DNA from: Clostridia bacterium
GTDB lineage: Bacteria > Bacillota > Clostridia > Christensenellales > CAG-917
Length of the DNA: 29,390 nt
Direction of reading: 5' to 3'
Assembly (NCBI GenBank): GCA_017507205.1
Contig: JAFWBH010000095.1
Location: forward strand, 1 to 29,390
Positions within the stretch are counted from its first letter, which is position 1. Each line of letters opens with the position of its first letter. Under the pieces are notes generated by a model. That model searched no databases, had not been told where the DNA came from, and saw only the letters and a program-made list of their open reading frames with translations. The position numbers and the translations under genes are program-made. Shown here piece by piece: positions 1 to 17,147 of this stretch.

Positions 1-3000
1 AAGGCCGTGGAAGTTAATCTTGCCAAGGCCAAGACCTGTTGCGTCAATGTAAAGTGAGTCTGCAAAGATCTTGTTTGCGCCGGCTGTTGCTGTCAGCTCA
101 TAGATGTTGCCTGACTTGGTGAGGCCTGTTGAGCCGAGATAGTAGATTGCAAGGAAGCTCTTGCCGGGAAGGATATCATCAATGGTGATGTCAATTGCAA
201 AGTCGCTATACAAGATGCCTGCAATACCCTTTGTGAGAAGTGCTGGCAGGTTGATGTCTGCTTCAACCGACATATTGATTGTGATGGGTCTTTCAGGGAG
301 TGTGATGACAAACTCTGTGTTCTTCAGAAGGTCAATCTCCTTGATGAAGCCAACAATGAGGTTTTCAAGCCAGCCAGTGAATGTTTCATTATAGCCAGCG
401 TCACCCTTCACAAGACCACTTGATGCAATTGACATTGCAATGTCAAGTGTAAGGCTGATTGACTCAATGCCAATTTGACCCGTTGTGATGTTGTATGCTT
501 CTGTGTAAGGAATGATGTATGCGCCGGTTGCACTACGCTCATAATGCTCTTCAACATACATGTATGCTCCATCGTCTGATGTGACATAGTCACCGTCCAC
601 GAGGTTGTAGCGTTGTCCTTCAAAGTCAGCTGTTGCCAATGCGTAATGCGCATCAATCTTGTTGTATCTTTCTCCAACAAACTTGTAGAGGCCACTTGCA
701 TCTTCAACATAGCTGTTGCCACTCTTTGTATATCTTGTTCCCTCATAGCTGACCAGCTCTTCTGCTGTAAGCTCTTGATATCTGTCACCAAGCTCCTTGT
801 GGAGAGCATTTGCGCTGTTGTAGGTGACATAAAGTGCTGATGTGCTGAAGCCAGCCTTCTTGTGCAAGCTGAATGCAAGATCCTTTGTGATTTCTGCTGA
901 TGCGTAGAAGCCTTCACTCATCTTGATGTTGAAGCTTGCAATATAAGGTCTTTCATCCACACCGTCAACAGGTGCATAACCATATGAATCAATCATGATT
1001 TCGCCGAGGTTGGGGATCAAGTTGCCAAGCTCCTTGCCTTGTTCCTCATAAATCTTGTTGATGATTGCATTGATTGTTGCTGTTGACAATGTAAGTGAGA
1101 AGTATTGAGGATGGATCATTGCTTGGAGGAATGCCCAATCATGAAGTGTGAGTCTTGATGCAATAGTGCTTGATGCTGCCATTGCCTCGCTGTCACCCTC
1201 TTCTCCGTTGCCAGCGATTCCACTGATGATGCCATCAATCATTTCACCGAGGCCAAGCTGTCCAAGATAAATCTTGCCAGTTTCGCCAAGGATTGCTGAT
1301 GCGTCAATGTAAACATTGTCGTTGGCGAGATAGATTGCAACGATAGGTTGCTCTGCAATTTCGCCATTCTTGTTGTATTGGAGCACTTCAAGAGCAAGCT
1401 CTGTTGCACCGAAGTTGCTCATGTCGATGTATGCACCCAGTCTGACTTGTGCTGAAGGATATTCCTCACTGCCCATATTGTCTGTAATGTTAAGACGGAG
1501 TGATGAGTCAGACATATCTGTTGAAGGTGACACAAGGCCAAAGACAAGGCTCAAAAGCTCACTCAAATCAATGACGTTGTCCTCTTCGCCAATCTTTGCA
1601 CTGCCGTAGTAGCTGAGGTCCATTGCCATTGTGAGATTGAGTGTTGACTTGGTGATGTCTGCGTAGTCAACAAACTTCTTGCCGTCAACGTCAAGATAAT
1701 CACCATCATCAGATGATGAAATATTCAATGAGTCGCCATTGACGTAGACACCAAGGTCATACATGTTGAAGTTGAGGCTCAAATCACCAATGAGGAGATA
1801 ATCACCTGCTGTTGTCACGTCATATGTTGCTCTGTCTGCAAGCACCTTGTTGCCTGAAAGCTTTTCATATGTATCAACGGGGAGATATCTGTTGCCATCT
1901 GCGCCATTTGATGCATATTTTGTGAGCTTTTCAACTGCGAGATCCTCTGCTGTGAGCTGGACGAAGCCACCTTCGCCGTCTGCGTTGAGGGCGAATGTGT
2001 TTGCATTCTTCTTGAGGTCGCCATCTGCGTCTGCAATATATTGACCATTTCTCAATGCGTAGCGTTGTCCTGTGAAGCCTGCCTCTGCTTGCTCAAATTC
2101 GCTGAACACCTTTTCAAAGGTCTTGCCGTCTGCGTTGAGGGTGTATCTGTCACCTGTCCAGACGCTGTTTGCGTATTCAACAAGTGCATATTTGTCACTT
2201 GACACCATAATATGTGTGCCGTTTTCGTCAACCACATATTCTTCGCCTTGGAGGCTGAACTTCACGCCGTTATATGCGTATTTGCCCACTTCCTCGAAGG
2301 CTTCGTAGCCGACCACAAAGCCCATATTGATGCCGATTGAGGGTGCGCCACCACCAAGGTTGATGATAAGACCACTTGTGTTTGCATCGTCTGTGATTTC
2401 AAGCTTGGGCAGATAGTCTGCACCGTCAAAGTCCTCTGCGATCATTCCAACAAGGTCAACAAGGAGATTATCCTTGAGTCCGACTGCGATGATGTCGTGT
2501 CCGAAGAGAACTTGACCGAGGATCATTTCAACAATGCCGAAGAGATCTGCAGGAATGATGCCGGTGTTGCTGTCTGTGCCTTCAACACCAAGAGTGTCAA
2601 GAGCAAGGGTGTCTGCACTTGCAAGTGCTTCGCCACCGACATTCTTGATGATAGGTGCAAGGTCAAGACCTTCAAATTTAACCTTGTTGAAGAAGTCGCC
2701 GAGGCCGACAACCTTGTTAAGCTCTTCAAGGTTCATATAGAGATTGAGTTTGCCGTCATTGTCAACATTCATCCAAATTTCAATGGTTGCGTTTTCATTG
2801 AAGTAGTTTGTTGTGCAGGTGACGTTGAGATAGAGCTCAAGTCCCTTGATTGCATCAATGATTTCACCACCATTCATGACATAGTCAAGGAGATTTTGGA
2901 CGTTGACCATTGCCTTCATATCAATGACAAGACCAATGTTCGCACCAAAGTTGCCGTTGTCCCAATCTGTTGATGCAAGAACAAAGTCAAAGTAATCATA

Positions 3001-6000
3001 AAGCTCTGTTGAGAGGAAGCTTGTCATCTGCTCTGTCCAGTTGATGACGTCAGAGAGCTTAAGCTCAACTGACATGGACATGTCAAGCTCAACAGTGTCA
3101 AGATCGCCAAGGAGCTTCATGATGTCAACATCTCCACCTGACAGCAATGCGCTGAGGTCAACACTCATGATTGTGTTGTAATCGGTGAAGTCGTCAACAA
3201 TCTTGTAGTAGGTCTTTGTATTGTCAAGTCCTGTTGCAATGCCGTTTGCATCGTATGCTACCTCTTGGAAGTTGCTGTCGCTGAGGTCTGCATACTTGGG
3301 TGCTTCCTCTGTGCCGTTGTAGACATAAAGTGCGCCACTTTGGTTCTTGTCCCATGCAGGCACATAGTATTTGGTTATAACAGGATAATCCTTGTATACA
3401 CTGATATATCTTGAATAGATTGAAGTTGCCTTGGGTGAAATTTCAATGTGGGTGAATTCTGCAGGATTTTCTGCAACCACTGCTTCACCACCAACAATGT
3501 TGTAGCGTCTTGCAGGCTCAACAAATTCCATTGTGCCACTGATTGTGATGTTGCTGACAACATAATCCTTGTCGGTGATGTTCCAGCAGTTCATCATATC
3601 AATGTAATGCTCCTTGCTGATGACAACATTGAACACTGAGTCGTTGTTGACCTTTGCAAGCTGTGCATCTGCTCTTGTGTAAACAAGGATGCCCTCTGCC
3701 ACTGCATCTTCAAATTCTGCTTCTGTGTAGATTTCAGTTGCCTTTACATAATACTTGCGATATGTATGGTGGACACCATTGCCAACCTCAACTGCATCCT
3801 CGGGGATAACCTTGCCGTCTGCTTTAAGCTCGCCAATTGCATCGCCGATTCTCACATATGCGTCCTCATACTCTGCTTCTCTGTTTTGGACAAAGTTGCC
3901 GTAGTAGAACACGTGGTTGTCTGCCACATCGCCGTCTGTTTCAATGCTACCCTTGTAGATTTCAATTCTCGTGTTGAAATCTTCCATTGTGCCAAAGTCA
4001 ATTGCTGAGCTGTTTTCATTGCCGTTGAACAATTGCATTTCAAGGCCCAATGTAAGAATGCCCTTTGTGCCGTCCTCGTTGTAGAGGTTGATTTCAACGC
4101 CTGTTGAATAGGGGTTGAGATTGACATTGACCTTTGCGTCAAAGTTGGGGAGCATTTCTCCAAGATCAACACCAAGAAGCTGCATAAGCACTTCAACAAA
4201 GCCCTTTGTGATTGCAAGTGAGAGCTTTCTTGTATAGATGTTGATGTAAACGCCTGCAAGTGCAGGATTTGCTGTCACGTCAACAAGACCCTCTGCATCT
4301 GCTGCTGCGCTTGCTTCACTGCCACCACCAAGTGCGATTTCACCTGAAAGAATGCCTGCTATAAGTGCTTCAATTGAGTATGCACTCATATTCACTGCAA
4401 ATCTTGCGCCTTCACCAAGCATCCATGAGAGGTCAAGGTAAAGTGCTGCATCGCCAGTGTCGATGTCGTGGTTGTAATAGATGCCAATCATATGGGTGAG
4501 AGTGCCGTCTGCATGGTTTGCACCATCGTTCTCTCTGCGCCAGACATCCATTGCAAGATCAAGGTCAAAGATGTTGAGGACGATTTCAGGCTTCCAGTCA
4601 ATACGATATGAGATGTTGATCTTCACTTCAAAGACCAATTCACCTGTGAAGCCTTCAAGGACTCTGATCATTGATTCATCAAGGTCACCGACAATGCCAC
4701 CGAGGACTGCGCCAAGTGATTCCTCAACGCCTGTTGAATAAAGGACATACTTGCCTTCATTGTCTTGGACATAGTTGCCTTGTTCAAGTCTATAACGGAG
4801 TGAAGGATCAATGTCTGCTTCGGTGATGTGGTTGCCAGTCATATTGACAAGGTCAATGTAGTCTGCAACAGTCATATAATCGTTGTAGCCTGTCACTGAA
4901 ATACTGCCACGAATTGTCAATGAAATGAAGAACATATCATCACTGTCAACATAGTTGATTGAGTCTGCATCCTCTCTGTAAAGGGCAATTCTGTTGAATC
5001 TTTCTGCAGTTGAGTCAATCTTGTTTGCATCCTCAAAGTCACCTGCTGTGAAATAGGTTGCAAGATATGTGCTGACAGGCATATATGATCTTGTCCAATC
5101 ATCGTATGCGTAAAGCTCTGTTTCTTCCTCTGTGAAGCGAACAAGCTTGCCGTCCTCATAGAGTGCCTTCACGTCTACATCTGAAAGTGTGCTTTCAAGG
5201 ACGAATGCGTTTGTCTTCCAGTTCCAGACATAATTGCGTGCGCCATCCTCAAGAACAAGCTCCATCTTGCCTGTTGCTCTTGAAATGACGTTTTCAACTG
5301 TTGCACGTTGATAGTATTGTGTGCCAGCAGGCTCTGTGCCGTCTGCACGGACATAGCTGTCACGATATTTGACTTGCTTGTAGAGCTTGCTTGCTGTGAT
5401 TTCTTCAAAGCGTGTAAGTCCCTTGTCTGTCAATTCAATGTGAATGTAGAATTCACGATCTGATGACACAAAGTCAACCATTTGACCACCAGCAAAGTCC
5501 ACTGTTGTGTAAACGCTTGTGACAGGCACGTGCTTGCCGTTGGCGTCAACAACATAAAGTGATGTGCTGTTGATTTCGTAGTATTCTCCTTGATAGTAAT
5601 AATAACGGAGATTGTCATAGTAGTTGCCGACGATTGCAATGCCGTCTGCTGTTGTGCCAACGGGGCTATCAAGTCCGACAATCCACTCATCCTTTGTATC
5701 CACACTGCCCACGTAGGTGTAAGCAACCTCAGGAACAATATAGTATCTGTCGCCACTGGGAGTATTTTCATCTGCAAGCTCGTAGTTGAATTCCTCAACT
5801 GAGATTTCAGGGAATCCAATGTTGACACCGATTTCATAATCCCAGAGATAGACCATAACTGACACGAGAGGCTTTCTTGCGTATGCAACAGGATTTGCAA
5901 CAAGCATATCTGCTTCGTCTACTGCTGTGAATGTGTAGAATTCATTGTCAAGTGATGAGTCGAAGCTGGCTGTCATATATCTGCCACCACCTGCATGGTA

Positions 6001-9000
6001 GTAAGCACCCTCATAATTGGTTGTGTCAGCCTTGGTGTAATACTTGAAGAATTCACCACTCTTTTCTGCTCTTTCCTTTTCAATTGCAGTTGCCTTTGAA
6101 AGCTCTTGATAGTAGTGACCGGTTGCTGTCAAGACCTTGATGTATGAGTCATATGCCTTGATTGAGTAATATTCGCCAGTGTATGCTTCAAGCTCTGCAT
6201 CTGTAAGGTCTGCCTTTGACATATAGACACCATTGACAAACACATATGTGCCATCAAGTGCGCCTTCTTCAAGGTAGAATCTCATGTCAGAGTTGCTTCC
6301 CTCTGCTGTCAATGCACTTTCATACTCATAGACTGCTCTGTCTGTGTTCAGTTGGAGATAAGGCTCCTTTGTAAAGTCGTTTTCGTTGAATTCAAGACCT
6401 GTGTCTGAATTTGCAAAGACCAGTGAAAGGATTTCATTTATAAAGTTGCTGTTGACAACGATTTGGACAAAGGTTGATGTCATTCTGACTCCAACGAGGA
6501 ATGCAGTCACATAGCCTGCAAGGTCATCGTTGAGGAGAGGAAGTGCGTTGTCAAGTGTATCGCCAATGCCAGCAAGTGAGTCGGTGATGCCGTCTGCTGC
6601 TTGTGCTTCGCTGTCGCCACCGAGGATGCCACCGAGAAGTCCACCAAGGACATCTTCAACCTCACCCTTGTGATCGTTAACGGTGCTACGGATTGAATCG
6701 CTGTTGACGTAGAAGCTGGGCATATTGAGGCCACTGAGGTCAAGGAAGAATCCACCTCTGACTCTCTTGTAATCGCCATTGGGGTTTGAATAGAAATACG
6801 TTGCATCGTATGCATAGCGAGTTCTGCCCACCTCATTGTGTTCAGGATCGTATGCAAATGTGCCTGTCAATGTATCGTAATAGTAGTTGCCATTTTCATT
6901 TTCAAAGTAATGGCTATAACGATATTCAGGTGCAACATAGTTGGCTGTGCCGTTGATTCTTTCATCTGCTGAAAGCTCTTCATAAGCACCACTTTCCATA
7001 TAGATACCCACGAGGGTGTGTGTATCTGAAATGACACGCTTACCGTTTGAATCAACAACAAGTCTGTCTGCTGTTGTTTGGACAATCAGTGATGCGTTGA
7101 AGAATGAGAGGACTTCACCAAGATTAATGGCGTCAAGATTTTGGACTGCGCCCATAATGACATTGATAAGCTCTTCAATGCCCATTTCTCCATTGATGTT
7201 GTCTGAAATGTCCTCATTGAAGCCATATTGACGCAGATAGTTGATGAGTGCACCGAGCTTGACCTCTACTGAGAGGACAACCTCAATCTTGCGTGCCACG
7301 TCACCTTCGGTGTCTGATGTTGCGCTGATGATTGCCTTCAAATCATCTGCATCCATTTGAGGGAAGAGCCATTCAAGGACTGCTGTCATATCAATGTCAC
7401 TGCCCTTGACAAATCTTGTTGTAAGATCAATTGATTCTGTGAGGACAAGTCTGTCAATTTCTGTGACCTCTGTGTATTCCTTCAAATCCTCTGCTGTAAG
7501 GTGATATTCATGCTCTGATGTGAACTTGACATCAACACCTCTCACTGCCACGAGGAGATTTACTGCTGTGTCATATTCATTCATATTGCCTGCGCCATCA
7601 TCTTCACGGTTGAAGTAGATTGTGCCAGATGCATCGTCCTCTGTTGCTTTTTCACGGACGTAGACTGTTGAAGGTCTTACTGCATCGGGTGCAAGTGCTG
7701 TGAAGGTGTTGCCCTTTTCAACATAGAGCTGTCTGTTCTTGTGATCGGGATTGCTTGCGCTGTAAAGGACAAAGTGATATGAGCCTTCAATTCCATTGTC
7801 AAGATCCTCATATGTGGGCTTTGCAACGGGGATATAACGGCTGCCTTCCATCATAAGCTTGACATTCATGTCAAGGCTCAATGAGTCATCAAATGCCATG
7901 TCAACCTGTGCTGATGCAAGAATCTTGTCTGTGATGTATTTGTCAAGGTCAAGACCTTCAACAAACATATCAATCAAGCCCTTGATGAGCTTGTTGCCGA
8001 TTGCGATTGTAAGCTGTCTTCTGCTGATGAGAAGGAGTGCGTCTGCATCTTCATCCTCAAGAGGTGATGCTGTCATTGCTTCACTTTCTGCATCTCCCTT
8101 GGGAAGCTCATTTTCTGTGTAGATGTCCTCATCAAGAAGTCCACCAAGTGTTTCTTCCATAAGGTTGGTGAGGATAGGTGTTGTGACGCTAATCTTGGGG
8201 ATGTTGAAGTAAGGTGCATCAAGGAAGAATTTGCCACCGAGGTAGTAAACACCAATCCAGAGATTGTCTGCACCTGTTTCTGAAATGTTGAAGATTTCAA
8301 TTGCAATTTCACTATTTGCAAGCTCTGCAAAGTCAGCAATCACTGACACATCCATACGGAAGTGTGCTGATGAATAGCCCTTTGAGGTTTCAGGCATTTC
8401 AAGGCTGATGCCTTGGATGTTGCCGAGAATGTTTGCAAAGATTGTGCCAAGGTCAAGCTCACCTTCGGTGATGCCAAGGTCAATTTCAATTGATGACTTG
8501 ATTGTGACGGCTGACTCATAGAAGTATGTGACAGGCACCTCTTCTGAGCCATTGATGACATAGTCGGGTGTCAAAGGCTTGCTTTGTCCACCAATCTTGA
8601 TGTCAAGGCCACCAATGCCAAAGCCAATTGTTGTTTGGTTGACGGTCAAATCAAGACCAAATGTGAAATCTTTGATTTCAGCGAATGACTTAATGTGACG
8701 ATAGTATTCGCCATTTGCATCAATGACGTAGCCTTGATAACGATCTGCAAAGCCTTGAACCTCAACAAATCTGCCACCACGACGGATGTAATAGGTTTCA
8801 TTTGCATCGTAATGATCTGCAACGTCCTCTGGTGCAACAACGCTGTAGCTGTCGCCGTTCTTGACGTAGAGAGGATATCTTTCTGCGTCAAAGTATTCGT
8901 AATTTGTGACACCATCTGTTTCGCCAACTGCAAGCTTTGCATATCTGCCATCGTAGCTGTTGTCGATCCATGTGATTTCATCGTAGTATGTATATCTCTC

Positions 9001-12000
9001 ATTCAAGGGGAGAATGAGGGTGTAGATATCCTTTTCTGCATTGACATCTTCAAGAAGGATTGTCTTGTGCTTATACACTGCATCTGCTCCGGTGCCTTCT
9101 GCAAATGTGACATCATACCTCACTGCGTCTTGAGGAACGATTGTTGCCTTTGTGATGTAGATATAATGATCAACACCACCAACTGTTTGCTTGAAGTAGT
9201 CGCCTTCGGCGTTTTCAACTGCTTCTGCCACTGCATATCTGGTGTCAACAATCTTGTCAAGATCAAGATTTTCAATTCTGTCGTAATCAAATCTGCCCAA
9301 ATCGCCTGCCAATGAAACCTCAAGGCTGTCGAAGATTTCTGTGATTGTGCCAAGGCTGGGTGCCAATGCTGAAATGATCACTGAAAGGAGTGTCTTGCTG
9401 ATGAGGATTTGACCTGCTGTGTCTGAATACATCAGTGCAAGCACTGCATCTCTTTCTTGGTCTGCCTCTGAGCTTGATGCCATTGCTTCGCCATTGCCCT
9501 CGGCTGATGTTGCGACAGTGCCGTCACCACCCATTGCAAGACTCATTGCAAGCTCGATGAAGTTGGGTATCTTTGTGTATGATGATGAGAGATCATAGAT
9601 GCCTGTGCCGTCAATGTAGAGGTCACCTCTGTAAAGGTAAATGCCACCCATTGCAACAAAGTCACCATTTTCATCTCTGACAGGTGTGCCCTTGTCATCT
9701 GTTTCAAGAAGCTCAAATGCAAATTCAACTGTGTCTAGGTCGCTTGTTGCAAGGAAGTCTGCAATCATTGCAGTTGTATCCTCGCCACCGGCAAGAATTC
9801 TGCCAATATTCAATGCGCCAAGGTCGCCTTGCAATGAAATGCGTGCTGCAACGCCGTCATGGAATGCACCGGTTGTCTTTGCCTTGATGACCATATCTGC
9901 AAGGTAGTTTTCAACAAGACCACCAAGCTCAAGGGTGTCAACATCTTCGCTGTCAAAGTTGATCATAATGTTCAAGCCAAGGCCAAGAGTCTTTGTGCTT
10001 TGGTTTTCATCCATAGGATACTTTTCAGGGTCGATGATTGACATCAAAAGGTCAATGTATGATGAGATATCTGTGAAATCGTTGATATCTTGAGGTGAAA
10101 GGACAGGATTTTCTTCTTCTGCCACCTCGAGAATGAGGCCAGCACCCATCTTCACTGTCATGCCAGTGCCGGACACTGTGCTGAGATTCATTGTGAGAGT
10201 GTGCTTGTTGTCCATTGTTGCATCGTTCAGCTTGATGAAGATGCCACTTTCGCTTTCATCAAGGTTGAACATGTCAAGACGGACCTCTTGTCCTGTGATG
10301 AGTGATGCGATGTCTGCAATAAGTGTTGAGTTGACAAGGACATCAATGCCGTCAAACTTGTTATACCAGAACTCGTCACCCTCTTCGAAGGGCTTGCCAC
10401 CCATGCCCATTGCAGTGCTTCTGATGATGATGCGCTTGATGAACTTGTTGAGATAGTCAACAATGCCAGGTGCTGTTGCTTCTTCCTCATCTGCAGCAGG
10501 CTGTGCCTCGCTGTCGCCACCCAATGCACCAAGTGCGTTGAGGAGTGAGAGAAGGTCAAATCTGACTTGAGGACCTGCAAAGTCGCCAAGGTCAAGGTAA
10601 AGGTTGCCATCTACAAGGTAGATGCCAAATGTCACTTCACTGTCGCCTTCGCCACTGTTGAAGGTCATTTCAACTGCCAATTCAAGTGCGCTGAGGATTG
10701 TTTCAACATCAAAGTTGAAGTTTTCAAATTCAAGCTTTGTAAGAAGATCGCTGACTCCAAGCTTTGCAAGGTCAACATTGCCCCAAACACGCAGAATCAT
10801 TGTTTCGTTGATGGGGTCGTTGAGATACATTTCAAGGCCAAGTCTGTCAATGAGTGCTCCAACAAGATTCCTCACAATACCTTCGTCAAGGCCAGAGATG
10901 AGGTCTTGCACTGCGTCAAGGCTGAATATACTTTCAATGATGTCGCTATACACAAGAGGATTCTTGATATACAAGCCGTTGGGGTCTTGTGCATATCTGC
11001 CGTCTGATTCACGGAGTGAATATCTTTCATCATCGCCATAGAGCTTTGCAGTTGCTTCATCAACAAGGATGTATGTTTCATCAAAGTTGAATTGCATTTC
11101 AACTTCCATATTGAATGCAACATTTTGGTTGGATGCAAAATTGTTGAATCTGTCAACACCATTGTCGCCACCAACATATTTGTAATATGTTGTGCCATTT
11201 TCAAGAGTGCCGGTGAAACGGACAAATGCACCATCTTCCTTGATGAAAATCATATCATTTTCTGTGTTGATATCGCCAAATTCCGACTCATCAACAACAG
11301 TGTAGTTCAATTCGTTTTGATAGTGATAAATTCCGTCATCAAGTCTTGCTGACACAGAGTCAAGATGCTCTGCTGCAATTCTGGGATTACGGACATAGAT
11401 TGATGCGTTGAACACGTCACTTGCAAAGTCAAATGTAAGTGATGTTGTATCAAAATCAACCTCAAAGTTAAGCTCGATGCCAAGATCGGGGAGCTTCTTC
11501 ACTGACTCGCTGATGTCAATGTCGCCAAGGATTGATTCACCCTCATCCTTTGACATTGCAAGGTCAATGACAAATGCAAGAATGCCAACAAGTGTTTGTT
11601 GTGTAATTGAGAGAGCAAGCTTGTCGCTGGCAAGTGCAAGGACAACCTCAAGTGCTTCTTCACTTGCTGTCTTGACCTCTTCGCTTGCTGCAGATGCTTC
11701 GCTATCCTCTTCTGTTGAGCCAAAAATTGATGCGATTGTGTCAATAAGCCACTTTGAAATGCCTGTATTCTCAACAACAAAGTCCTTTTCTGACAAAATG
11801 CCCATATCAACATAGAGGCTTCTGCCACGGAGATAAATGCCAAGGACGGTGCTGTCTGCTGTTGCATTTGAGCCGGCAACAAGGTTCTTGATTTCAATCA
11901 TCAATTCTGTTTCTTCAGGATTGTCAAGTGAAAGGTTGCCTGCAATGAGAAGCTCAACGTCAAGAAGCATATCTTTTTCAATTTCAACGCCAATTGCAAG

Positions 12001-15000
12001 TGCAAAGTCTGCGATGAATGCCGACACCAAGTCATTGATGGGCAATTCCTTGTTTTCAAAGTCTTGCGTATCGCAGACCTCAACCTTCAATTCCACTGCT
12101 GCTTCAAATGCAAGGGTTGTAAGGTTGGTTGCGCTGATGTATTTGTTTGCTTCAATATTTTCACTGACAACATCACTTTCAACAGTGTGCTTGTCTGAGA
12201 AGCCCACCATAAAGTTGGTCATTGAAACGCCAACGGTGAAGGGGTCAATTGCCACTGCAAAGTCAAGCTGATATGTGTCCATATTGAACTTGACAAAGCT
12301 CTTGTCGGGGTTGATTGCAAGGAAGTTTTCGTTGAGATTTTGTGCAACGTATGTTCCGTTTGCGCTTTCAACATAGTTGACAGAGCCGTCCTCATTTTCA
12401 ACACGGATATATTTTGTGCCTGTGTATGATTCAAGTGCTTCGCCTTCAAGCTCTACGTAGCACATATCGGGAGCAACAAGCTGCAACACTGTTGCAATGA
12501 GTCCACTTGCAAAGTAGAGTGTGAGGCTTTCTGAGTTGACATTGAGGCCGTAAAGCACATTGCCAATGAGGTCTGTGATTGAGCCAACAACATCTGATGC
12601 ACCCTCGTTGGTGCCTTCGGTTTCGTCTGCTGATGCTTGTGCTTCACCTTCTCCACCGGTCACTCCTGAAAGGAGTGCTGCAAGGCTGAGGTCAGCAATC
12701 ATAAGATGAACGTCCTCAACAGGTGCAACATTGACATCAATGTAGAGTGTGCTTGTTGCTGCCACTGTGGGAGCATTTACATCATCACAGAGGAGTGTAA
12801 TTGCAAAGATTCTTGCTTCGGGGATATCTTTGACCTGCTCGTAAACGCCGTCAAACAGCTCAATTGCGATATCTGAGTGTGCAAGGATATAGTTGATGTC
12901 AAGCATATCTTCGGGGTTGAAGCGAAGCATTGCTGCAATCTTGACACCAAGATATTTTTGAATAGTTGAATCAATGTCAAATGCAAGAAGGATTTGTTCA
13001 AGGAAGCCCTTTACACCTTCATTGCTTGTGCCAAGAAGGAGTGATACCCATTGTCCAACAGGCCATGAATCAACATCGTTGGTTGCTTCAAGGTCAATTG
13101 TAAGGTTCAATTCAACATAAACCTGTTCAAGAGCAATGGCGAGCTTGCCTTCCTCGTCAATGTCAAGAAGGCTGATAAGCGCATAGCTATCCTCTCTGCC
13201 ATCGAAGACAAAGTCTTCGTGTGCGTTGTCTGCTGTCTTGCCATAAGGAATGACATCAATGATTTCGTGAGTGATTTGAAGCTCGGGTCTGTAAATGTCG
13301 AGAGTTGCACTGCCTGTGGGTTGCTTGTTTTGGTCCATGCCGACAATCTTTGTTGTCACAAGAGGTTGCTCGTCCATGCCTTCAACCTGCTCTGCCCAGG
13401 AAATTTCAAGTGCTGCTTCAATGATTGCAATGTTGATGCCTGCAACGTCCCAGAGTGCTTCCACGATGCCTTGGAATATTTCAAGTCTGATGCTTTCATT
13501 GCCAATCATCATTGCAAGACCAAGAGCATAGTCAAATTTGCTGACGTCATAAGGTGTGTCGATGGTGTAATCATCGCCTGCTGACATTGCTTCAGCATTG
13601 TCAGGATTGATTTTTACATTGGAATCTTCACCAAGAATGAGGTCAAGGATGATTGCATAAAGGTCAATTTCAACGGCAATCTTTTCAACACCAAGCTGTG
13701 ATGCGTCAACATAGAGCTTGCCGTCAATGTAATAAAGACCAAGGATGAATTTTTCAACGGAATTCTTGTTCTCAATGGCTTCAATGAGGATTTGAGTTTC
13801 ATTTCCGTTGGTGTAAATCTCTTCTGCACCAAGTAGCCAGTCAAGGACGGGAGCAAGGTCAAGAGATGCTTGGACTCTCAAATCGTAGCCGAGGTTGATT
13901 TCTTCCTCAAAGATGACTGCGCCACCATTGCCCATAGGTGTATTGCCTTGGTTGAGCTGTGCGTCAAGAGCCATTTCAAGTCCGAGGAAAATGTTGGGGG
14001 TTTCAAAAATATTGACAAAGTCAATGTCTGTGGGGACATCAAGATTTACATCCTCGGGGACGCTGTTGATGCCCAGCTTGAGATTGCCCATATTGACATC
14101 AAGGTCAAGCTTGTCGTCAAAGTTGAGGTAAACCTCAACACCAAGCTCTGTCAAATCAATGCCGTCTGCAAATGTAATGCGAATGCCACCATCAACTGCT
14201 GAATCAAGAAGACCAATGTCAAGTCTTGTGCCAGCAAGCTTATAGTAGGTTTCGCTTGCGTCAAATGCGCCTGTTGCTTGCTTCAATACGCCGTTTTCGT
14301 CTCTGACGAACACGTTTTCGGTGAAGGTGCCGGCTTCATAGCTGGCAAGCTCCTCTGCACTGAGTGCAACATAGCCGTCCTCTTTGGCTTCAAAGCCGAT
14401 GAGGTCAATGAGTGTTTGAATAAGTCCACTTGCAAGATAGACGTTGATTGATGCGCCAGAAACATCAACACCACCAATGAGACCTGCAACAAGTGCAATG
14501 ATTTGATTCATTGAATCGTTGCTGACTTCACCCTCTTCGCCTTCGCCATCTGCACTCATAGCTTCGCTATCGCCACCGATGACGCCAAAGTGTGCAAGAA
14601 GCTCCTTGGCAGGAATTGAAATGTCAATTCCGTCAATGATGCTGTCTGCTGTATGGAGATAAAGCATTCCGTCGTTGAGCCAAATTTCAATTGACTTTTC
14701 ATCGCTTCCCTTTTCAGCAAGTGACATATGCACTGATGCTTCAAGGAGGCCAGCAATGTCAAATTGACCGTCCTTGAGGAGCTTTGTAAGGTCGATGTTT
14801 GCTTCGAGTGAAAGCACTGCGCCTGTTTCAATTTGCTCAACGAAGTCAACAATTGCTTGCAAGAATATTGCACGTGATGAAGCAATGTCAATCTTGGTCA
14901 ATTCCTCTTGAATTACAACCAAATCAACATCCACTGACATACCGACGTAAACGTTGTTCAGTGCGCCAAGGATTGTGTCAAGGTTGAGGCCACCTGAAAG

Positions 15001-17085
15001 ATCAAGCTCTGTGTAGAGTGCTCTTTCCTCGTCAGAGATTGTCACCTTTTCAACGAATTCCTCTTCATTGTTTATCCAGCCAAATTGCATTGTTACGTCA
15101 ATGCCGAGGCCAACGATTTCCTCGTCTGCGCCAATTGAAGCGTTGATTGAGATTTTCTTTTCCTCTGCAAAGCCGATGTCAACAAATTCTACATCAACCA
15201 CCTTGACAGGAATCTTTTCGCCGGTGTAGCCACCATTTTCATCCTTGAAGATCATTGTCCAGAGATAGTCAAAGACTTTCTCTGTCAATGTCATATTGAG
15301 GCTTTGAATGTTGAAGATATTGCCATCCTTGACAAGAGTGCAGCTTGAAACGATTTCACTTATAAGTGAAATGATGTCTGTGATAGGCTCGTCATCATCG
15401 CTTGCTGCCACTGAAAGTGTGTGGAGAATTTCACCATTGCCAAGCTTGTCAGAGATTTCATCTGCCATTGCTTGTGCTTCAGGGTTGTCAGGATTTTCTG
15501 CAAGTGCCTTTTCTATTTCAGCAACGAGCATATCAAAGAGGTCTGCAATGACCTTGTTGAGATTGATATCTGAAATGACAAATGAACCTGTGCCCATAAG
15601 ACCTGTGAGATCGATGAACAAGGCTTCTTGTTGTCCTGAATATACGATTGTGCCACGGTTTCCACCGTTGTTGTCCAAAAGCTCAATCAAGATGTTTGTC
15701 TTGCTGTTGTCTTTTGTGTTGATTTGTGCTTGAAGATTAACCTTCAAGCCGTATGTAATATCACCAAGTCCGATTGGCATTGTCCAGAGAGGACTATCTT
15801 CGGGGAGGAAACTGCTGAGAAGTCCTGTGAGGAGTGTGCCAAATGCAGGAGAAACACCTTCAAGTGTCAGCTCCTTGCTGTGAGTGTTGATATTGAGGCC
15901 CATTGAAAGATTGAAGGTGAGCAATGAATATTCCATTGCATCAGAAATGTCAATGCCTCTATCGAGCATTGCTTGTTCAACATCAATGTCAATATCCTCA
16001 TTGAGTGCAAGCTTGTTGACATTGAGAACAAGGTCAACATCTGCAAAATACTTGCCGTAGTCAGGGTCGGGTCTGCCATTCTGTTCACTTTCAAAGTCAA
16101 CGCCAACACCCAGGTTCATGCCACTGAGCTTGCCCTCTTTGTTGATGTCTGCAACAAAGTCAAGGGTCATACCCTTGAGGTGCTCAAGCTTGTTGAGATC
16201 CATGCCGGTAAGGTCAAAGACAAGTGAATAGATTTGTTCAATGTCAATTGCTTCGCCAATAAGGTCAGGGAGCATACCGACAAGTGAAGGCACCAATGAC
16301 ATGATAAGTGACAAGTCAAAGGGGAGCACAATGCGTTGTCCACCGTCTACGAGAGGGACAATTTGTGCGCCTTCGGTTGCCATAACAAAGCCAGATTCAA
16401 CCAAAAGCCATTCCAATGTCAAGCCGTTGAGCTTGATGGGGAGAAGGCCTTCGGGGATCATCTCGCCTGCATCAATTGCAAGAATTGTGTCAAAAATGAT
16501 GTCTGCGATTGATTGGCCACCGGAAACACCTTGATAAATCTCGGCAAGTCCGTTGAGCAATGCTGTCACGTTGATGTCTTGTGTTCTGACAACATATCTG
16601 CCAAGACCAGCGCCATTTTTGCCTTTGAGGCCTGTCACGTCCATGACAACTGTTTCACTTGTGTAATACAAGCCCATAAGCAGTGTCTGCTGTTCAATGC
16701 CCAATGGTCGTTTCAGCAATTCAAACAAGAGCTCTGAATCATCACTGCCGTCACTGAAATCGGTGTCGAATGCGCCGGCAAGCTTGATGGCAAAGTTGTT
16801 GCCTGTCTTGTCCTTGCTGTAATCAAAGTCAAGGTCTACATCGAAATTGACAATATCACTGCCAGGATGAACTGCAAGGGCTGCATTTTTAAATGCGTTC
16901 CATGCATCCACTGTTGAAACAGTTGGTCCTTGAGTGTCGTCCTCGATGGGATTGTCATCTGCAGGTGGCACTGGGATAATGGGCTCCGGTTGAGGGGGAG
17001 TCACAGGAGTGTCGTTGCATGCGAACATGCAGGTCACCATGCTGATGAGCAAAACGATAAGTAGTGCGATTTTGAGTTTCTTCAT
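1..17085 (-). CDS. Giant repetitive surface lipoprotein, at least 5,695 aa, 3' end beyond the left edge of the window; at least 14 tandem ~310-340 aa beta-rich repeats with Tyr-rich insertions
   Basis: ATG at 17085 preceded by AGGAGG (17091-17096) and a TTGACA-17-TAAAAT promoter. Manual translation of the frame (codons ending at multiples of 3) gives no stop from 17085 to 1. Strongly biased codon use (GCA, CTT, GAC, ACA, TCA, GGC). All minus-strand ORFs in the supplied track for this region are in another frame. Confidence 0.95.
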   Translation of the reverse strand, partial: MKKLKIALLIVLLISMVTCMFACNDTPVTPPQPEPIIPVPPADDNPIEDDTQGPTVSTVDAWNAFKNAALAVHPGSDIVNFDVDLDFDYSKDKTGNNFAIKLAGAFDTDFSDGSDDSELLFELLKRPLGIEQQTLLMGLYYTSETVVMDVTGLKGKNGAGLGRYVVRTQDINVTALLNGLAEIYQGVSGGQSIADIIFDTILAIDAGEMIPEGLLPIKLNGLTLEWLLVESGFVMATEGAQIVPLVDGGQRIVLPFDLSLIMSLVPSLVGMLPDLIGEAIDIEQIYSLVFDLTGMDLNKLEHLKGMTLDFVADINKEGKLSGMNLGVGVDFESEQNGRPDPDYGKYFADVDLVLNVNKLALNEDIDIDVEQAMLDRGIDISDAMEYSLLTFNLSMGLNINTHSKELTLEGVSPAFGTLLTGLLSSFLPEDSPLWTMPIGLGDITYGLKVNLQAQINTKDNSKTNILIELLDNNGGNRGTIVYSGQQEALFIDLTGLMGTGSFVISDINLNKVIADLFDMLVAEIEKALAENPDNPEAQAMADEISDKLGNGEILHTLSVAASDDDEPITDIISLISEIVSSCTLVKDGNIFNIQSLNMTLTEKVFDYLWTMIFKDENGGYTGEKIPVKVVDVEFVDIGFAEEKKISINASIGADEEIVGLGIDVTMQFGWINNEEEFVEKVTISDEERALYTELDLSGGLNLDTILGALNNVYVGMSVDVDLVVIQEELTKIDIASSRAIFLQAIVDFVEQIETGAVLSLEANIDLTKLLKDGQFDIAGLLEASVHMSLAEKGSDEKSIEIWLNDGMLYLHTADSIIDGIDISIPAKELLAHFGVIGGDSEAMSADGEGEEGEVSNDSMNQIIALVAGLIGGVDVSGASINVYLASGLIQTLIDLIGFEAKEDGYVALSAEELASYEAGTFTENVFVRDENGVLKQATGAFDASETYYKLAGTRLDIGLLDSAVDGGIRITFADGIDLTELGVEVYLNFDDKLDLDVNMGNLKLGINSVPEDVNLDVPTDIDFVNIFETPNIFLGLEMALDAQLNQGNTPMGNGGAVIFEEEINLGYDLRVQASLDLAPVLDWLLGAEEIYTNGNETQILIEAIENKNSVEKFILGLYYIDGKLYVDASQLGVEKIAVEIDLYAIILDLILGEDSNVKINPDNAEAMSAGDDYTIDTPYDVSKFDYALGLAMMIGNESIRLEIFQGIVEALWDVAGINIAIIEAALEISWAEQVEGMDEQPLVTTKIVGMDQNKQPTGSATLDIYRPELQITHEIIDVIPYGKTADNAHEDFVFDGREDSYALISLLDIDEEGKLAIALEQVYVELNLTIDLEATNDVDSWPVGQWVSLLLGTSNEGVKGFLEQILLAFDIDSTIQKYLGVKIAAMLRFNPEDMLDINYILAHSDIAIELFDGVYEQVKDIPEARIFAITLLCDDVNAPTVAATSTLYIDVNVAPVEDVHLMIADLSLAALLSGVTGGEGEAQASADETEGTNEGASDVVGSITDLIGNVLYGLNVNSESLTLYFASGLIATVLQLVAPDMCYVELEGEALESYTGTKYIRVENEDGSVNYVESANGTYVAQNLNENFLAINPDKSFVKFNMDTYQLDFAVAIDPFTVGVSMTNFMVGFSDKHTVESDVVSENIEANKYISATNLTTLAFEAAVELKVEVCDTQDFENKELPINDLVSAFIADFALAIGVEIEKDMLLDVELLIAGNLSLDNPEETELMIEIKNLVAGSNATADSTVLGIYLRGRSLYVDMGILSEKDFVVENTGISKWLIDTIASIFGSTEEDSEASAASEEVKTASEEALEVVLALASDKLALSITQQTLVGILAFVIDLAMSKDEGESILGDIDISESVKKLPDLGIELNFEVDFDTTSLTFDFASDVFNASIYVRNPRIAAEHLDSVSARLDDGIYHYQNELNYTVVDESEFGDINTENDMIFIKEDGAFVRFTGTLENGTTYYKYVGGDNGVDRFNNFASNQNVAFNMEVEMQFNFDETYILVDEATAKLYGDDERYSLRESDGRYAQDPNGLYIKNPLVYSDIIESIFSLDAVQDLISGLDEGIVRNLVGALIDRLGLEMYLNDPINETMILRVWGNVDLAKLGVSDLLTKLEFENFNFDVETILSALELAVEMTFNSGEGDSEVTFGIYLVDGNLYLDLGDFAGPQVRFDLLSLLNALGALGGDSEAQPAADEEEATAPGIVDYLNKFIKRIIIRSTAMGMGGKPFEEGDEFWYNKFDGIDVLVNSTLIADIASLITGQEVRLDMFNLDESESGIFIKLNDATMDNKHTLTMNLSTVSGTGMTVKMGAGLILEVAEEENPVLSPQDINDFTDISSYIDLLMSIIDPEKYPMDENQSTKTLGLGLNIMINFDSEDVDTLELGGLVENYLADMVIKAKTTGAFHDGVAARISLQGDLGALNIGRILAGGEDTTAMIADFLATSDLDTVEFAFELLETDDKGTPVRDENGDFVAMGGIYLYRGDLYIDGTGIYDLSSSYTKIPNFIELAMSLAMGGDGTVATSAEGNGEAMASSSEADQERDAVLALMYSDTAGQILISKTLLSVIISALAPSLGTITEIFDSLEVSLAGDLGRFDYDRIENLDLDKIVDTRYAVAEAVENAEGDYFKQTVGGVDHYIYITKATIVPQDAVRYDVTFAEGTGADAVYKHKTILLEDVNAEKDIYTLILPLNERYTYYDEITWIDNSYDGRYAKLAVGETDGVTNYEYFDAERYPLYVKNGDSYSVVAPEDVADHYDANETYYIRRGGRFVEVQGFADRYQGYVIDANGEYYRHIKSFAEIKDFTFGLDLTVNQTTIGFGIGGLDIKIGGQSKPLTPDYVINGSEEVPVTYFYESAVTIKSSIEIDLGITEGELDLGTIFANILGNIQGISLEMPETSKGYSSAHFRMDVSVIADFAELANSEIAIEIFNISETGADNLWIGVYYLGGKFFLDAPYFNIPKISVTTPILTNLMEETLGGLLDEDIYTENELPKGDAESEAMTASPLEDEDADALLLISRRQLTIAIGNKLIKGLIDMFVEGLDLDKYITDKILASAQVDMAFDDSLSLDMNVKLMMEGSRYIPVAKPTYEDLDNGIEGSYHFVLYSASNPDHKNRQLYVEKGNTFTALAPDAVRPSTVYVREKATEDDASGTIYFNREDDGAGNMNEYDTAVNLLVAVRGVDVKFTSEHEYHLTAEDLKEYTEVTEIDRLVLTESIDLTTRFVKGSDIDMTAVLEWLFPQMDADDLKAIISATSDTEGDVARKIEVVLSVEVKLGALINYLRQYGFNEDISDNINGEMGIEELINVIMGAVQNLDAINLGEVLSFFNASLIVQTTADRLVVDSNGKRVISDTHTLVGIYMESGAYEELSADERINGTANYVAPEYRYSHYFENENGNYYYDTLTGTFAYDPEHNEVGRTRYAYDATYFYSNPNGDYKRVRGGFFLDLSGLNMPSFYVNSDSIRSTVNDHKGEVEDVLGGLLGGILGGDSEAQAADGITDSLAGIGDTLDNALPLLNDDLAGYVTAFLVGVRMTSTFVQIVVNSNFINEILSLVFANSDTGLEFNENDFTKEPYLQLNTDRAVYEYESALTAEGSNSDMRFYLEEGALDGTYVFVNGVYMSKADLTDAELEAYTGEYYSIKAYDSYIKVLTATGHYYQELSKATAIEKERAEKSGEFFKYYTKADTTNYEGAYYHAGGGRYMTASFDSSLDNEFYTFTAVDEADMLVANPVAYARKPLVSVMVYLWDYEIGVNIGFPEISVEEFNYELADENTPSGDRYYIVPEVAYTYVGSVDTKDEWIVGLDSPVGTTADGIAIVGNYYDNLRYYYYQGEYYEINSTSLYVVDANGKHVPVTSVYTTVDFAGGQMVDFVSSDREFYIHIELTDKGLTRFEEITASKLYKQVKYRDSYVRADGTEPAGTQYYQRATVENVISRATGKMELVLEDGARNYVWNWKTNAFVLESTLSDVDVKALYEDGKLVRFTEEETELYAYDDWTRSYMPVSTYLATYFTAGDFEDANKIDSTAERFNRIALYREDADSINYVDSDDMFFISLTIRGSISVTGYNDYMTVADYIDLVNMTGNHITEADIDPSLRYRLEQGNYVQDNEGKYVLYSTGVEESLGAVLGGIVGDLDESMIRVLEGFTGELVFEVKINISYRIDWKPEIVLNIFDLDLAMDVWRRENDGANHADGTLTHMIGIYYNHDIDTGDAALYLDLSWMLGEGARFAVNMSAYSIEALIAGILSGEIALGGGSEASAAADAEGLVDVTANPALAGVYINIYTRKLSLAITKGFVEVLMQLLGVDLGEMLPNFDAKVNVNLNPYSTGVEINLYNEDGTKGILTLGLEMQLFNGNENSSAIDFGTMEDFNTRIEIYKGSIETDGDVADNHVFYYGNFVQNREAEYEDAYVRIGDAIGELKADGKVIPEDAVEVGNGVHHTYRKYYVKATEIYTEAEFEDAVAEGILVYTRADAQLAKVNNDSVFNVVISKEHYIDMMNCWNITDKDYVVSNITISGTMEFVEPARRYNIVGGEAVVAENPAEFTHIEISPKATSIYSRYISVYKDYPVITKYYVPAWDKNQSGALYVYNGTEEAPKYADLSDSNFQEVAYDANGIATGLDNTKTYYKIVDDFTDYNTIMSVDLSALLSGGDVDIMKLLGDLDTVELDMSMSVELKLSDVINWTEQMTSFLSTELYDYFDFVLASTDWDNGNFGANIGLVIDMKAMVNVQNLLDYVMNGGEIIDAIKGLELYLNVTCTTNYFNENATIEIWMNVDNDGKLNLYMNLEELNKVVGLGDFFNKVKFEGLDLAPIIKNVGGEALASADTLALDTLGVEGTDSNTGIIPADLFGIVEMILGQVLFGHDIIAVGLKDNLLVDLVGMIAEDFDGADYLPKLEITDDANTSGLIINLGGGAPSIGINMGFVVGYEAFEEVGKYAYNGVKFSLQGEEYVVDENGTHIMVSSDKYALVEYANSVWTGDRYTLNADGKTFEKVFSEFEQAEAGFTGQRYALRNGQYIADADGDLKKNANTFALNADGEGGFVQLTAEDLAVEKLTKYASNGADGNRYLPVDTYEKLSGNKVLADRATYDVTTAGDYLLIGDLSLNFNMYDLGVYVNGDSLNISSSDDGDYLDVDGKKFVDYADITKSTLNLTMAMDLSYYGSAKIGEEDNVIDLSELLSLVFGLVSPSTDMSDSSLRLNITDNMGSEEYPSAQVRLGAYIDMSNFGATELALEVLQYNKNGEIAEQPIVAIYLANDNVYIDASAILGETGKIYLGQLGLGEMIDGIISGIAGNGEEGDSEAMAASSTIASRLTLHDWAFLQAMIHPQYFSLTLSTATINAIINKIYEEQGKELGNLIPNLGEIMIDSYGYAPVDGVDERPYIASFNIKMSEGFYASAEITKDLAFSLHKKAGFSTSALYVTYNSANALHKELGDRYQELTAEELVSYEGTRYTKSGNSYVEDASGLYKFVGERYNKIDAHYALATADFEGQRYNLVDGDYVTSDDGAYMYVEEHYERSATGAYIIPYTEAYNITTGQIGIESISLTLDIAMSIASSGLVKGDAGYNETFTGWLENLIVGFIKEIDLLKNTEFVITLPERPITINMSVEADINLPALLTKGIAGILYSDFAIDITIDDILPGKSFLAIYYLGSTGLTKSGNIYELTATAGANKIFADSLYIDATGLGLGKINFHGL
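43..16674 (-). repeat. 14 diverged protein-level tandem repeats, marked by a G[ILV]Y..LY[ILV]D hairpin core
   Basis: Cores begin near 16674 (GLYYTSETVVMD), 15651, 14691, 13740 (GLYYIDGKLYVD), 12810, 11841 (GIYLRGRSLYVD), 10626 (GIYLVDGNLYLD), 9645 (GIYLYRGDLYID), 8253 (GVYYLGGKFFLD), 7008, 4485 (GIYYN...LYLD), 2784, 1338 (AIYLANDNVYID) and 150. Spacing is ~930-1020 nt where inserts are small or absent and up to ~2,520 nt where they are large. Confidence 0.85.
17017..17085 (-). other. Lipoprotein signal peptide (SPase II) of the giant ORF: MKKLKIALLIVLLISMVTCMFA/C, lipidated Cys23
   Basis: Basic n-region (KKLK), hydrophobic h-region and lipobox-like MFAC, followed by the Pro/acidic tether NDTPVTPPQPEPIIPVPPADDNPIEDDTQGPT. 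Confidence 0.85.
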
Positions 17086-17147
17086 AATTTCCTCCTGCTT
17101 CACATACGCAAGCGTGCGTATGCTTGCACAGACTAATATACAGTATG

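Follow-up and report, generated by a model that had tools for sequence, protein, structure and literature searches.

A giant lipid-anchored surface protein built on 14 copies of an undescribed module in a family of small-genome gut Clostridia

Giant surface proteins and lipid-binding modules

Among the described giant surface proteins, Ebh, SasG/Aap, and Giant1-5 of Apilactobacillus kunkeei (PMC12863079) are the closest in design to the protein presented here. They share its megadalton size, export signal, and tethering to the membrane or wall; like it, they consist largely of repeated modules in long arrays, and their genes fill much of a small genome. They also have Ig-like domains, of which signals are present in the tails of our orthologues. 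Unlike these proteins, ours carries an N-terminal lipobox anchor (no LPXTG was seen), and its modules are alpha/beta units of ca. 300 amino acids without a database family, exactly 14 in number and conserved by position. A sequence relation between any of them and the giant lipoprotein was undetectable.

Proteins that hold lipids provide a second set of comparisons. The LolA/LolB/LppX-LprG clan, which includes the DUF6612 and DUF2092 lipoproteins of Bacillota, follows an order of ca. six strands, central helices, and ca. five strands that recalls that of our unit. The extracytoplasmic lipoprotein context is also shared, three of the units lie near the clan by language-model features, and there was one weak Foldseek match (E value of 0.11). 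On the other hand, the unit measures ca. 300 amino acids versus ca. 180 to 200 in the clan, its acidic loop is long and disordered, and 14 such units follow one another in a chain. Compared by description only, the DUF4925 lipoproteins of Bacteroidota (ca. 310 to 334 amino acids) resemble the unit in size and in the succession of a beta N-domain, a disordered link, and a C-terminal domain. In the 334-amino-acid example, an N-domain of ca. 100 amino acids, a short disordered link, and a hydrophobic “chalice” of ca. 200 amino acids are predicted, and the protein binds LPS and lipopeptide; A6LA28 of Parabacteroides distasonis binds LPS (PMC13034630). However, DUF4925 proteins belong to a different phylum and are single-domain proteins, and PF16272 (DUF4925) matched none of 89 diverse units, even at an E value of 10.

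Bridge-like lipid transfer proteins (AsmA/TamB/YhdP and VPS13; PMC10345924) are likewise made of old and strongly diverged repeats, constant in number, with long amphipathic beta-strands and loops, and a role in lipid supply might be common to both. The giant lipoprotein differs from them in the helices within its units, the monoderm organization of its cell, its lipobox anchor, and the lack of any signature match or of a fold match among the best 50 listed. Finally, P116 of Mycoplasma pneumoniae is a surface protein of a lipid-auxotrophic bacterium with a reduced genome, in which a sheet and amphipathic helices enclose lipids and whose fold was an orphan when solved (PMC10023570). It is a dimer of ca. 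1,000 amino acids, unlike the 14-module chain found here; our unit profile did not match it among PDB sequences, and it was absent from the best 50 Foldseek matches.

The gene and its 14 modules

The window analyzed, 29,390 nucleotides of contig JAFWBH010000095.1, contains on the minus strand a single open frame (positions 1 to 17103, 5,701 codons) that continues past the contig end. The likely start codon is the ATG at 17085, with AGGAGG just upstream, which leaves 5,695 codons (1 to 17085, minus strand) as the 5' part of the gene and its 3' end outside the contig. The nearest full-length relative has ca. 8,370 residues, and the orthologue in genome G011 is an open frame of 8,384 codons; the window holds the membrane-proximal two thirds of a lipid-anchored surface protein of ca. 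0.9 MDa. A contig from an independent run reaches 3.9 kb beyond window position 1 with a coding part free of indels, and no indel appeared in the 17 kb compared with independent gut metagenomes. In one run provisionally labeled as RNA, the gene was represented only by scattered contigs of 156 to 299 nt. The gene is single-copy and occupies ca. 1.7% of a 1.5-Mb genome.

Read directly, a promoter-like site with its leader extends over 17086 to 17176 (minus strand), with TTGACA at 17176 to 17171 and TAAAAT at 17153 to 17148 separated by 17 nt; the leader includes a palindrome besides the AGGAGG ribosome-binding site. The gene upstream ends in a hairpin and T-run at ca. 17532 to 17556. A 285-amino-acid upstream ORF is a conserved neighbor of the giant gene, but a functional link was rejected, since this ORF has its own terminator and lacks a signal peptide. 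The genes downstream in G011 are housekeeping, and no transport-type, lipid-metabolism, or protease genes were found among the giant-gene neighbors.

The protein begins with a signal peptide and lipobox (MKKLKIALLIVLLISMVTCMFAC; 17017 to 17085, minus strand) in which the lipidated Cys is amino acid 29 (numbering here and below follows the printed frame). Both elements are present in all orthologues, with canonical L-[VFT]-A-C lipoboxes, and Lgt and LspA are encoded in the genome and in its relatives. The signal peptide is the sole hydrophobic, transmembrane-like segment of an acidic protein (pI of ca. 4.1) from which Cys is nearly missing. Judged from its sequence, the lipobox tethers the N-terminus of the protein to the cytoplasmic membrane, on its outer side. 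What reads as a Pro-rich acidic linker (16921 to 17016, minus strand; amino acids 30 to 61) leads from the lipid anchor to the first unit.

Module boundaries were taken from an iterated unit HMM run on the window protein, which detected 14 units with E values from 6e-10 to 2e-55. An HMM built solely from orthologues of other genera recovered 13 of them (4e-7 to 3e-32) and left unit 1 weak (0.79); as controls, the best of five shuffles gave 9e-4 and the reversed sequence 0.14. Every full-length orthologue also carries 14 units, occasionally split into 15 by the HMM, so that the earlier note's count of at least 14 tandem repeats was borne out. Its estimate of 310 to 340 amino acids for insert-poor repeats likewise fits the 305 to 332 measured. 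Units share only 15 to 20% identity with one another; the array consists of ancient copies, 14 in all, of a module of ca. 300 residues not described before.

All units lie on the minus strand. Unit 1 (15850 to 16854; amino acids 84 to 418) is the most divergent and lacks the EA motif described below, which is located at amino acid 542 in unit 2 (14962 to 15876; 410 to 714), 847 in unit 3 (14011 to 14961; 715 to 1031), 1171 in unit 4 (13060 to 13989; 1039 to 1348), and 1487 in unit 5 (12052 to 13047; 1353 to 1684). Then come unit 6 (10900 to 12051; 1685 to 2068), unit 7 (9928 to 10899; 2069 to 2392), unit 8, with Tyr-rich inserts (8623 to 9942; 2388 to 2827), unit 9 (7309 to 8565; 2847 to 3265), and unit 10 (5926 to 7290; 3272 to 3726). 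A long Tyr-rich insert (4750 to 5925, minus strand; 3727 to 4118), which at 67% identity to G011 is conserved like the units, separates unit 10 from unit 11 (3640 to 4749; 4119 to 4488). The array continues with unit 12 (1924 to 3072; 4678 to 5060), unit 13 (427 to 1512; 5198 to 5559), and unit 14 (1 to 468; 5546 to 5701), which is incomplete and ends at the contig end.

The N-terminal part of the module is a sheet of long amphipathic strands whose last element is a G-[IL]-Y..L-Y-[ILV]-D hairpin (GLYYIDGKLYVD in unit 4). Its middle is a disordered acidic loop in which an E-A-x-[TAS]-A motif (the EA motif) hardly varies, and a C-terminal part of helices and strands follows. The strands show a strict hydrophobic/polar alternation. 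The strand and helix order proposed in the earlier note agrees with the DSSP assignment of an AlphaFold2 model of three units (pLDDT of 66) and largely with that of unit 4 modeled alone (pLDDT of 77), and the strings that it quoted are present in unit 4 (YDLRVQASLDL), unit 3 (YLASGLIQTLI), and unit 5 (YFASGLIATVL). The final 14-residue strand of the unit reached a pLDDT of 82 to 84 in the three-unit model versus ca. 50 to 60 alone. The EA motif is the best-conserved feature of the module: the Ala at profile column 144 is found in 91% of 280 units (Neff of ca. 150), above every core residue, and the E, [TAS], and A around it are likewise conserved. It is present in units 2 to 13, within a loop of pLDDT <50.

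Distribution and relatives of the module

The giant gene was found in 22 of 24 genomes of one small-genome family and in none of 16 sister families. Within the family, identity to the congeneric orthologue is 61 to 80%, even over the full length and with few gaps. When units were compared with seven orthologues, the best match of each one was the unit of the same index (50 to 220 bits), while the best paralogue gave 23 to 50 bits. New here are this positional correspondence of the modules between genera, the fixed count of 14, the distribution of the gene, and the rank of the EA motif as the best-conserved feature. After unit 14, full-length orthologues have a beta-rich C-terminal tail of 1,700 to 2,500 amino acids. 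Outside the window, Big_4 (Ig-like) signals were detected in the tails of G011 (E value of 1e-9) and P0017 (3e-4); inside it, Pfam detected no adhesive or Ig-like domain.

A phmmer search with three units against 1.84 billion representative proteins retrieved 27 relatives, all of them giant proteins or their fragments, and the unit profile found only giant-protein fragments, with no single-domain relative, among 5.8 billion proteins (178 to 565 amino acids). Pfam and NCBIfam gave no match for the whole protein or 10 single units and nothing recurrent in the 89 diverse units, and the unit profile had no match to PDB sequences at an E value of 10. In these same three sets, there was no significant sequence or profile match to the LolA/LolB/LppX-LprG clan, and the Chorein_N, AsmA, and TamB (DUF490) signatures were absent; an ATG2_CAD match in one of the 89 units (E value of 0.1) was discarded as noise. 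Aligned by hhalign with DUF6612, a proxy for the LolA/LppX clan of only 8 to 10 sequences, the unit profile obtained a probability of 0.1%, versus 99.8% for the positive control. The LppX_LprAFG collection from 300 Bacillota genomes consisted of one match.

Structure comparisons were read from the best 50 of ca. 550 to 660 Foldseek matches per model. Against the PDB, the single unit gave nothing below an E value of 0.02 in these 50, with TM-scores of ca. 0.1 and no member of the LolA/LppX clan; against viral structures, the single unit had no match. With three units, the best match was TbpB (6e-4, probability of 0.41, TM-score of 0.1). The earlier note had looked to Foldseek for a LolA/LppX or repeating-beta-groove (RBG) match, and nothing convincing emerged: LolA-LolB ranked 38th for the three-unit model (E value of 0.11, probability of 0.35, target TM-score of 0.28), and no TamB, VPS13, ATG2, AsmA-type, or BLTP chain was among the best 50 for either model. 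The weak three-unit matches were mostly half-barrels or barrels (BFA1/AttH, LmcA, LolA-LolB, LptD, and hot-dog thioesterases), several of which hold hydrophobic ligands. By language-model features, three units of ca. 16% identity were closest to DUF4925 (0.86 to 0.91; the top named family in two of the three), followed by DUF6583, DUF6612, LppX_LprAFG, and DUF2092, at scores at or below what the tool calls “a lead only” (150 to 159 shared features versus the 170 expected of true members).

Surface fibre, lipid capture, and other possible roles

We tentatively read the protein as a surface fibre with ligand-binding modules, the best of the explanations considered although we would put it at somewhat less than an even chance. 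The 14 modules would form a fibre or scaffold of fixed length that extends across the wall and presents the distal Ig-like region on its far side, and would themselves bind ligands, possibly hydrophobic or amphiphilic ones, rather than make up one continuous lipid groove. The protein may then serve to attach the cell to the host, food particles, or neighboring cells, or to capture ligands from them. It has the export signal, the surface anchor, and the stalk of tandem repeated domains that characterize fibrillar adhesins. Also in favor of the fibre are the constant 14 units with a long tail bearing Big_4 signals, the positional correspondence and even conservation of the units, the near family-wide presence of the gene, its own promoter, and the lack of transport-type neighbors and of Omp85; the lack of a known adhesive domain in the window speaks against it. 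However, the stalk is atypical: those of typical fibrillar adhesins are made of beta-sandwich domains of ca. 100 amino acids, variable in copy number and alike among copies, whereas here the units are alpha/beta, of 300 amino acids, fixed at 14, and only 15 to 20% identical, which argues against the fibre.

Another explanation, which seems unlikely to us, is a chain of LolA/LppX/DUF4925-like half-barrel pockets for fatty acids, lipids, or lipoglycans, in which 14 tethered modules would capture these ligands or pass them along between the surroundings and the membrane of a fatty-acid auxotroph, as a relay of pockets and not necessarily as one groove. The same lipid-binding lipoprotein families are retrieved by language-model features from three units as different as 16% identity, DUF4925 lipoproteins have the size and two-part layout of the unit (PMC13034630), the weak Foldseek matches are mostly half-barrels and barrels, several with hydrophobic ligands, and with P116 of Mycoplasma there is already one wall-less lipid auxotroph known to extract lipids by means of a surface protein (PMC10023570). 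Against it, no sequence, profile, or fold match was significant, the language-model scores do not exceed the lead-only level, and lipid-metabolism neighbors were not found. Gram-positive bacteria, moreover, do not normally use extracellular carriers for the uptake of free fatty acids.

Metabolic gene content bears on the same question. FabF was absent from all 24 family genomes searched and FabZ from five of five, while PlsX was present in five of five and DegV/FakB in two to three copies. The check for lipid auxotrophy that the earlier note proposed was therefore positive and fits lipid pockets, but it is not specific to the giant-gene family, because FabF is missing as well from 10 of the 16 sister families, none of which has the giant gene; as specific support for a lipid role, auxotrophy was rejected. 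The fuller claim, that the modules are distant LolA/LppX/DUF4925-type pockets and that the membrane-tethered chain is an extracellular system of lipid capture and relay for a monoderm without fatty-acid synthesis, is quite unlikely; if true, the relay would be a Gram-positive counterpart of the Lpt/AsmA bridges or of mycoplasma P116.

The protein might instead be an envelope scaffold or ruler that, without binding ligands, gives order or spacing to the wall and the surface layer in these small cells. This is consistent with a single-copy, nearly family-wide gene that takes up ca. 1.7% of the genome, with its fixed module number and even conservation along its length. We regard it as rather improbable: Pfam revealed neither SLH nor any other domain that binds the cell wall, and nothing ties the protein to wall synthesis genes. 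Distinctly improbable, too, is a processed polyprotein or modified scaffold, with the EA motif as the site of cleavage or modification and nicked or released modules coating the surface. In Mycoplasma, surface adhesins undergo processing at short motifs within disordered regions, and here an Ala conserved above the core residues, with its E, [TAS], and A flanks, lies in a low-pLDDT loop of units 2 to 13; its small residues two apart may resemble peptidase recognition sites. However, protease genes are absent nearby, and a role in binding or folding would account just as well for the conservation of a linear motif.

The lipid-carrying bridge of repeats that the earlier note envisaged is not established; the analyses gave no result that bears it out and none that refutes it. 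Omp85 was looked for and not found in genome G000 (64% complete) and in four relatives that are 98 to 100% complete, and therefore there is no second membrane to bridge. In its continuous form, with the strands of successive modules joined into an AsmA/TamB/VPS13-like groove conducting lipids across the wall, it is very improbable: the alternation of the strands, the RBG-like fixed number of ancient repeats, and a last strand modeled with confidence only when the next unit is present, which hints at strand sharing over unit borders, stand against the lack of any Chorein_N, AsmA, or TamB match or of RBG structures in the best 50 Foldseek matches, three to four helices and a long disordered loop inside each unit, the missing second membrane, a lipobox instead of a transmembrane helix as anchor, a distal region of at least 2,000 amino acids that is Ig-like and beta-rich, and a predicted length far beyond the thickness of the cell wall.

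Whichever role applies, the nearly invariant EA motif of the disordered loop is a concrete candidate site for processing or modification, and the fold and ligand of the module would define a new extracellular domain family. Were the lipid reading true, it would reveal by what route a monoderm with a wall obtains its lipids. Since the protein takes ca. 1.7% of the genome, is nearly family-wide, and has no counterpart among catalogued domains or solved structures, it probably has a central place in the life of these uncultured, fatty-acid-auxotrophic bacteria of the animal gut.

Gene, anchor, and repeat array of the giant lipoprotein

The source genome is a 1.0-Mb metagenome-assembled genome (64% complete) of which the 29.4-kb window is one entire contig, and positions 1 to 17103 of its minus strand form a single open frame that continues past the contig end. 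The ATG at 17085 is preceded by a sigma-70-like promoter, a palindrome-bearing leader, and an AGGAGG, and the gene upstream is closed by its own terminator. The palindrome (GTGCAAGC ATACGCACGCTTGCGTATG; window 17105 to 17140, minus strand) is imperfect and falls after the promoter-like site and before the ribosome-binding site. The encoded giant protein begins with a signal peptide, its only hydrophobic segment, and a lipobox that is canonical (L-x-A-C) in all orthologues; both the source genome and its relatives encode Lgt and LspA. The mature protein (pI ca. 4.1) contains only six Cys among 5,672 residues. In the closest full-length orthologue, from the congeneric genome G011, the open frame has 8,384 codons, with 69% identity across the shared part. 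A contig from an independent gut metagenome run (X1) runs 3.9 kb beyond window position 1 within the gene, so that the missing 3′ part might be retrieved from public data.

The tandem repeats described in an earlier note on this sequence were confirmed, and the strings quoted there were found in the protein. An iterated HMM delimited 14 units (E 6e-10 to 2e-55), the last of them truncated where the contig stops. Using an HMM built from orthologues of other genera only, units 2 to 14 were recovered (E 4e-7 to 3e-32) and unit 1 weakly, with best E values of 9e-4 for shuffled and 0.14 for reversed controls. Insert-poor units are 305 to 332 aa long, and later units carry long Tyr-rich inserts that match no Pfam family and equal the core units in their conservation between species (67 to 77% identity to G011). 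These beta-hairpin-like inserts (Y-x-x-x-x-G-x-Y type) were located at window positions 4750 to 5925, 3073 to 3639, and 1513 to 1923, as well as within units 8 to 13, and become larger towards the C-terminus.

A conservation profile of 280 units (Neff ca. 150) gave two family signatures, the hairpin G-[IL]-Y-[LY]-x-x-x-x-L-Y-[ILV]-D and the motif E-A-x-[TAS]-A (EA motif). The leading profile columns were 144 (Ala, 91% of units), 106 (Tyr, 86%), 108 (Asp, 80%), 99 (Tyr, 75%), 147 (Ala, 68%), and 143 (Glu, 63%). The EA motif, the best-conserved feature of the repeat, sits in an acidic loop that is disordered in AlphaFold2 models and occurs once in each of units 2 to 13 (aa 542 to 5306; nt ca. 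1186 to 15480); it may serve for cleavage, modification, or docking. It often follows a hydrophobic helix that terminates in GG.

The gene was detected in 22 of 24 genomes of the same family (1.1 to 2.2 Mb), with open frames of 6,200 to 10,400 codons where the contig end does not interrupt them, and with this query in none of 16 other families of the order. Only 27 of 1.84 billion representative proteins matched, all of them giant proteins or fragments thereof. All full-length orthologues (7,286 to 7,918 aa, ca. 26% identity) contain 14 units, counted as 15 at times from HMM splits, followed by a tail of 1,700 to 2,500 aa; in G011 the units span 74 to 5859 and the tail has ca. 2,500 aa. Across seven orthologues, the best BLAST match of each unit was the unit of the same index (50 to 220 bits), versus only 23 to 50 bits for the best paralogous unit within the protein. 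Since same-index matches beat paralogues and there are 14 units throughout, the array is ancient, fixed at 14, and position-specific, unlike most adhesin stalks, in which repeats are variable and homogenized. Identity to the congeneric orthologue is even along units and inserts (61 to 80%). Sequences of the gene also appeared on contigs from independent animal-gut metagenomes (at least 10 studies), with substitutions within the coding part and all listed indels in the upstream intergenic region. In one run provisionally labeled RNA ("RNA?"), short near-identical contigs were scattered along the gene, only weak evidence of its transcription.

Predicted fold and comparison with lipid-binding families

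The AlphaFold2 model of a single unit (aa 1030 to 1352, alignment of 89 diverse units) reached a pLDDT of 76.9 and a pTM of 0.71. Its first 130 residues (pLDDT near 90) fold as a pair of 14-residue strands and a short helix, then the ELxIE strand, the hairpin strands, and another helix; past the acidic loop there are helices and a three-strand meander. In a three-unit model (aa 714 to 1690; pLDDT 66, pTM 0.54), which reproduced the element order proposed in the earlier note, the post-loop order in all three units was helix, two strands, helix, further strands, and a final 14-residue strand. This last strand was confident only with the next unit present, which would mean either that neighboring units have strands in common or that the real boundary of the domain falls one strand before the one drawn here. 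Hydrophobic and polar residues strictly alternate along the strands, and the helices are amphipathic, a pattern that fits a two-layer packed domain and a pocket equally well.

The proposed likeness to LolA/LppX found no support at the sequence and profile level: neither the protein nor its units matched any Pfam or NCBIfam family, and hhalign of the unit profile versus DUF6612 gave a probability of 0.1% (positive control, 99.8%). The unit profile had no match among PDB sequences, and a profile search for single-domain relatives of the unit returned none. Foldseek against the PDB gave no match below E 0.02 for the single unit (TM-scores of ca. 0.1), while for the three-unit model the top match was TbpB (6e-4, probability 0.41), followed by BFA1, AttH, LptD, LmcA, and hot-dog enzymes, with LolA-LolB at rank 38 (E 0.11, target TM 0.28). 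Likeness to repeating-beta-groove proteins, also put forward in the note, found no backing among the best 50 matches of this model, which included no TamB, VPS13, or AsmA-type chain.

Language-model features of three units with ca. 16% mutual identity retrieved the same families each time, namely DUF4925 (0.86 to 0.91), DUF6583, DUF6612, LppX_LprAFG, and a cluster carrying DUF6612 and LppX_LprAFG. Scores of this kind, which the tool rates as leads only, point to lipid-binding lipoprotein families. A 334-aa DUF4925 lipoprotein that binds LPS and a lipopeptide is described as comprising an N-domain of ca. 100 aa, a short disordered link, and a hydrophobic chalice of ca. 200 aa (PMC13034630); going by this published description, it resembles the unit in size and two-part layout.

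Lipid physiology and gene neighborhood

FabF was found neither in the 24 family genomes searched nor in the source genome, and FabZ neither in the source genome nor in four relatives that were 98 to 100% complete, as anticipated under the lipid auxotrophy raised in the earlier note; the lineage has PlsX along with two to three DegV/FakB copies. The family thus seems to rely on an outside supply of fatty acids. Of the 16 sister families in which the giant gene was not found, 10 likewise lack FabF, and the link between gene and auxotrophy is therefore nonspecific. No Omp85 was found, in agreement with a monoderm envelope.

Around the giant gene lie glycosidase-type and housekeeping genes, with no lipid-transport genes among them, and orthologue tails gave only weak Big_4 signals. 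A 285-aa ORF lies upstream in the same orientation (window 17585 to 18442, minus strand), with neither a Pfam match nor a signal peptide. Most genomes of the genus carry it beside the giant gene, as do some other genera; between the two genes sit a terminator and a separate promoter. Directly downstream of the G011 orthologue (L008:13118-14245) are two zinc-ribbon proteins, one of them an SPFH/Band-7 protein whose zinc ribbons are C-terminal.

Candidate functions

Our tentative preference is for a lipid-anchored surface fiber or scaffold of fixed length, with 14 ligand-binding modules and a distal Ig-like part that makes contacts beyond the wall. A relay of lipid-binding pockets, to which the language-model pointers and the DUF4925 likeness lend support, is a live if rather unlikely alternative. 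The single-copy, near-universal gene and its fixed module number would suit a purely structural role, which we consider improbable, and processing or modification at the EA motif, favored by conservation of the motif within a disordered loop, seems doubtful as well. A single continuous beta-groove bridge is very hard to reconcile with the helices and loops within each unit, the absence of a second membrane, a length far exceeding the wall, and the lack of a fold match.

We found no paper describing this family. It is new that the 14 units show strict positional orthology and that the EA motif ranks as their best-conserved feature. The AlphaFold2 topology is also new, as are the negative outcomes for LolA/LppX and repeating-beta-groove proteins in fold and profile tests, the repeated language-model pointer to lipid-binding lipoprotein families, and the FASII-less, Fak/PlsX-positive background. 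If the fiber reading holds, the anchored protein would project from the cell, its modules would themselves bind ligands, and its distal part would make contacts beyond the wall.
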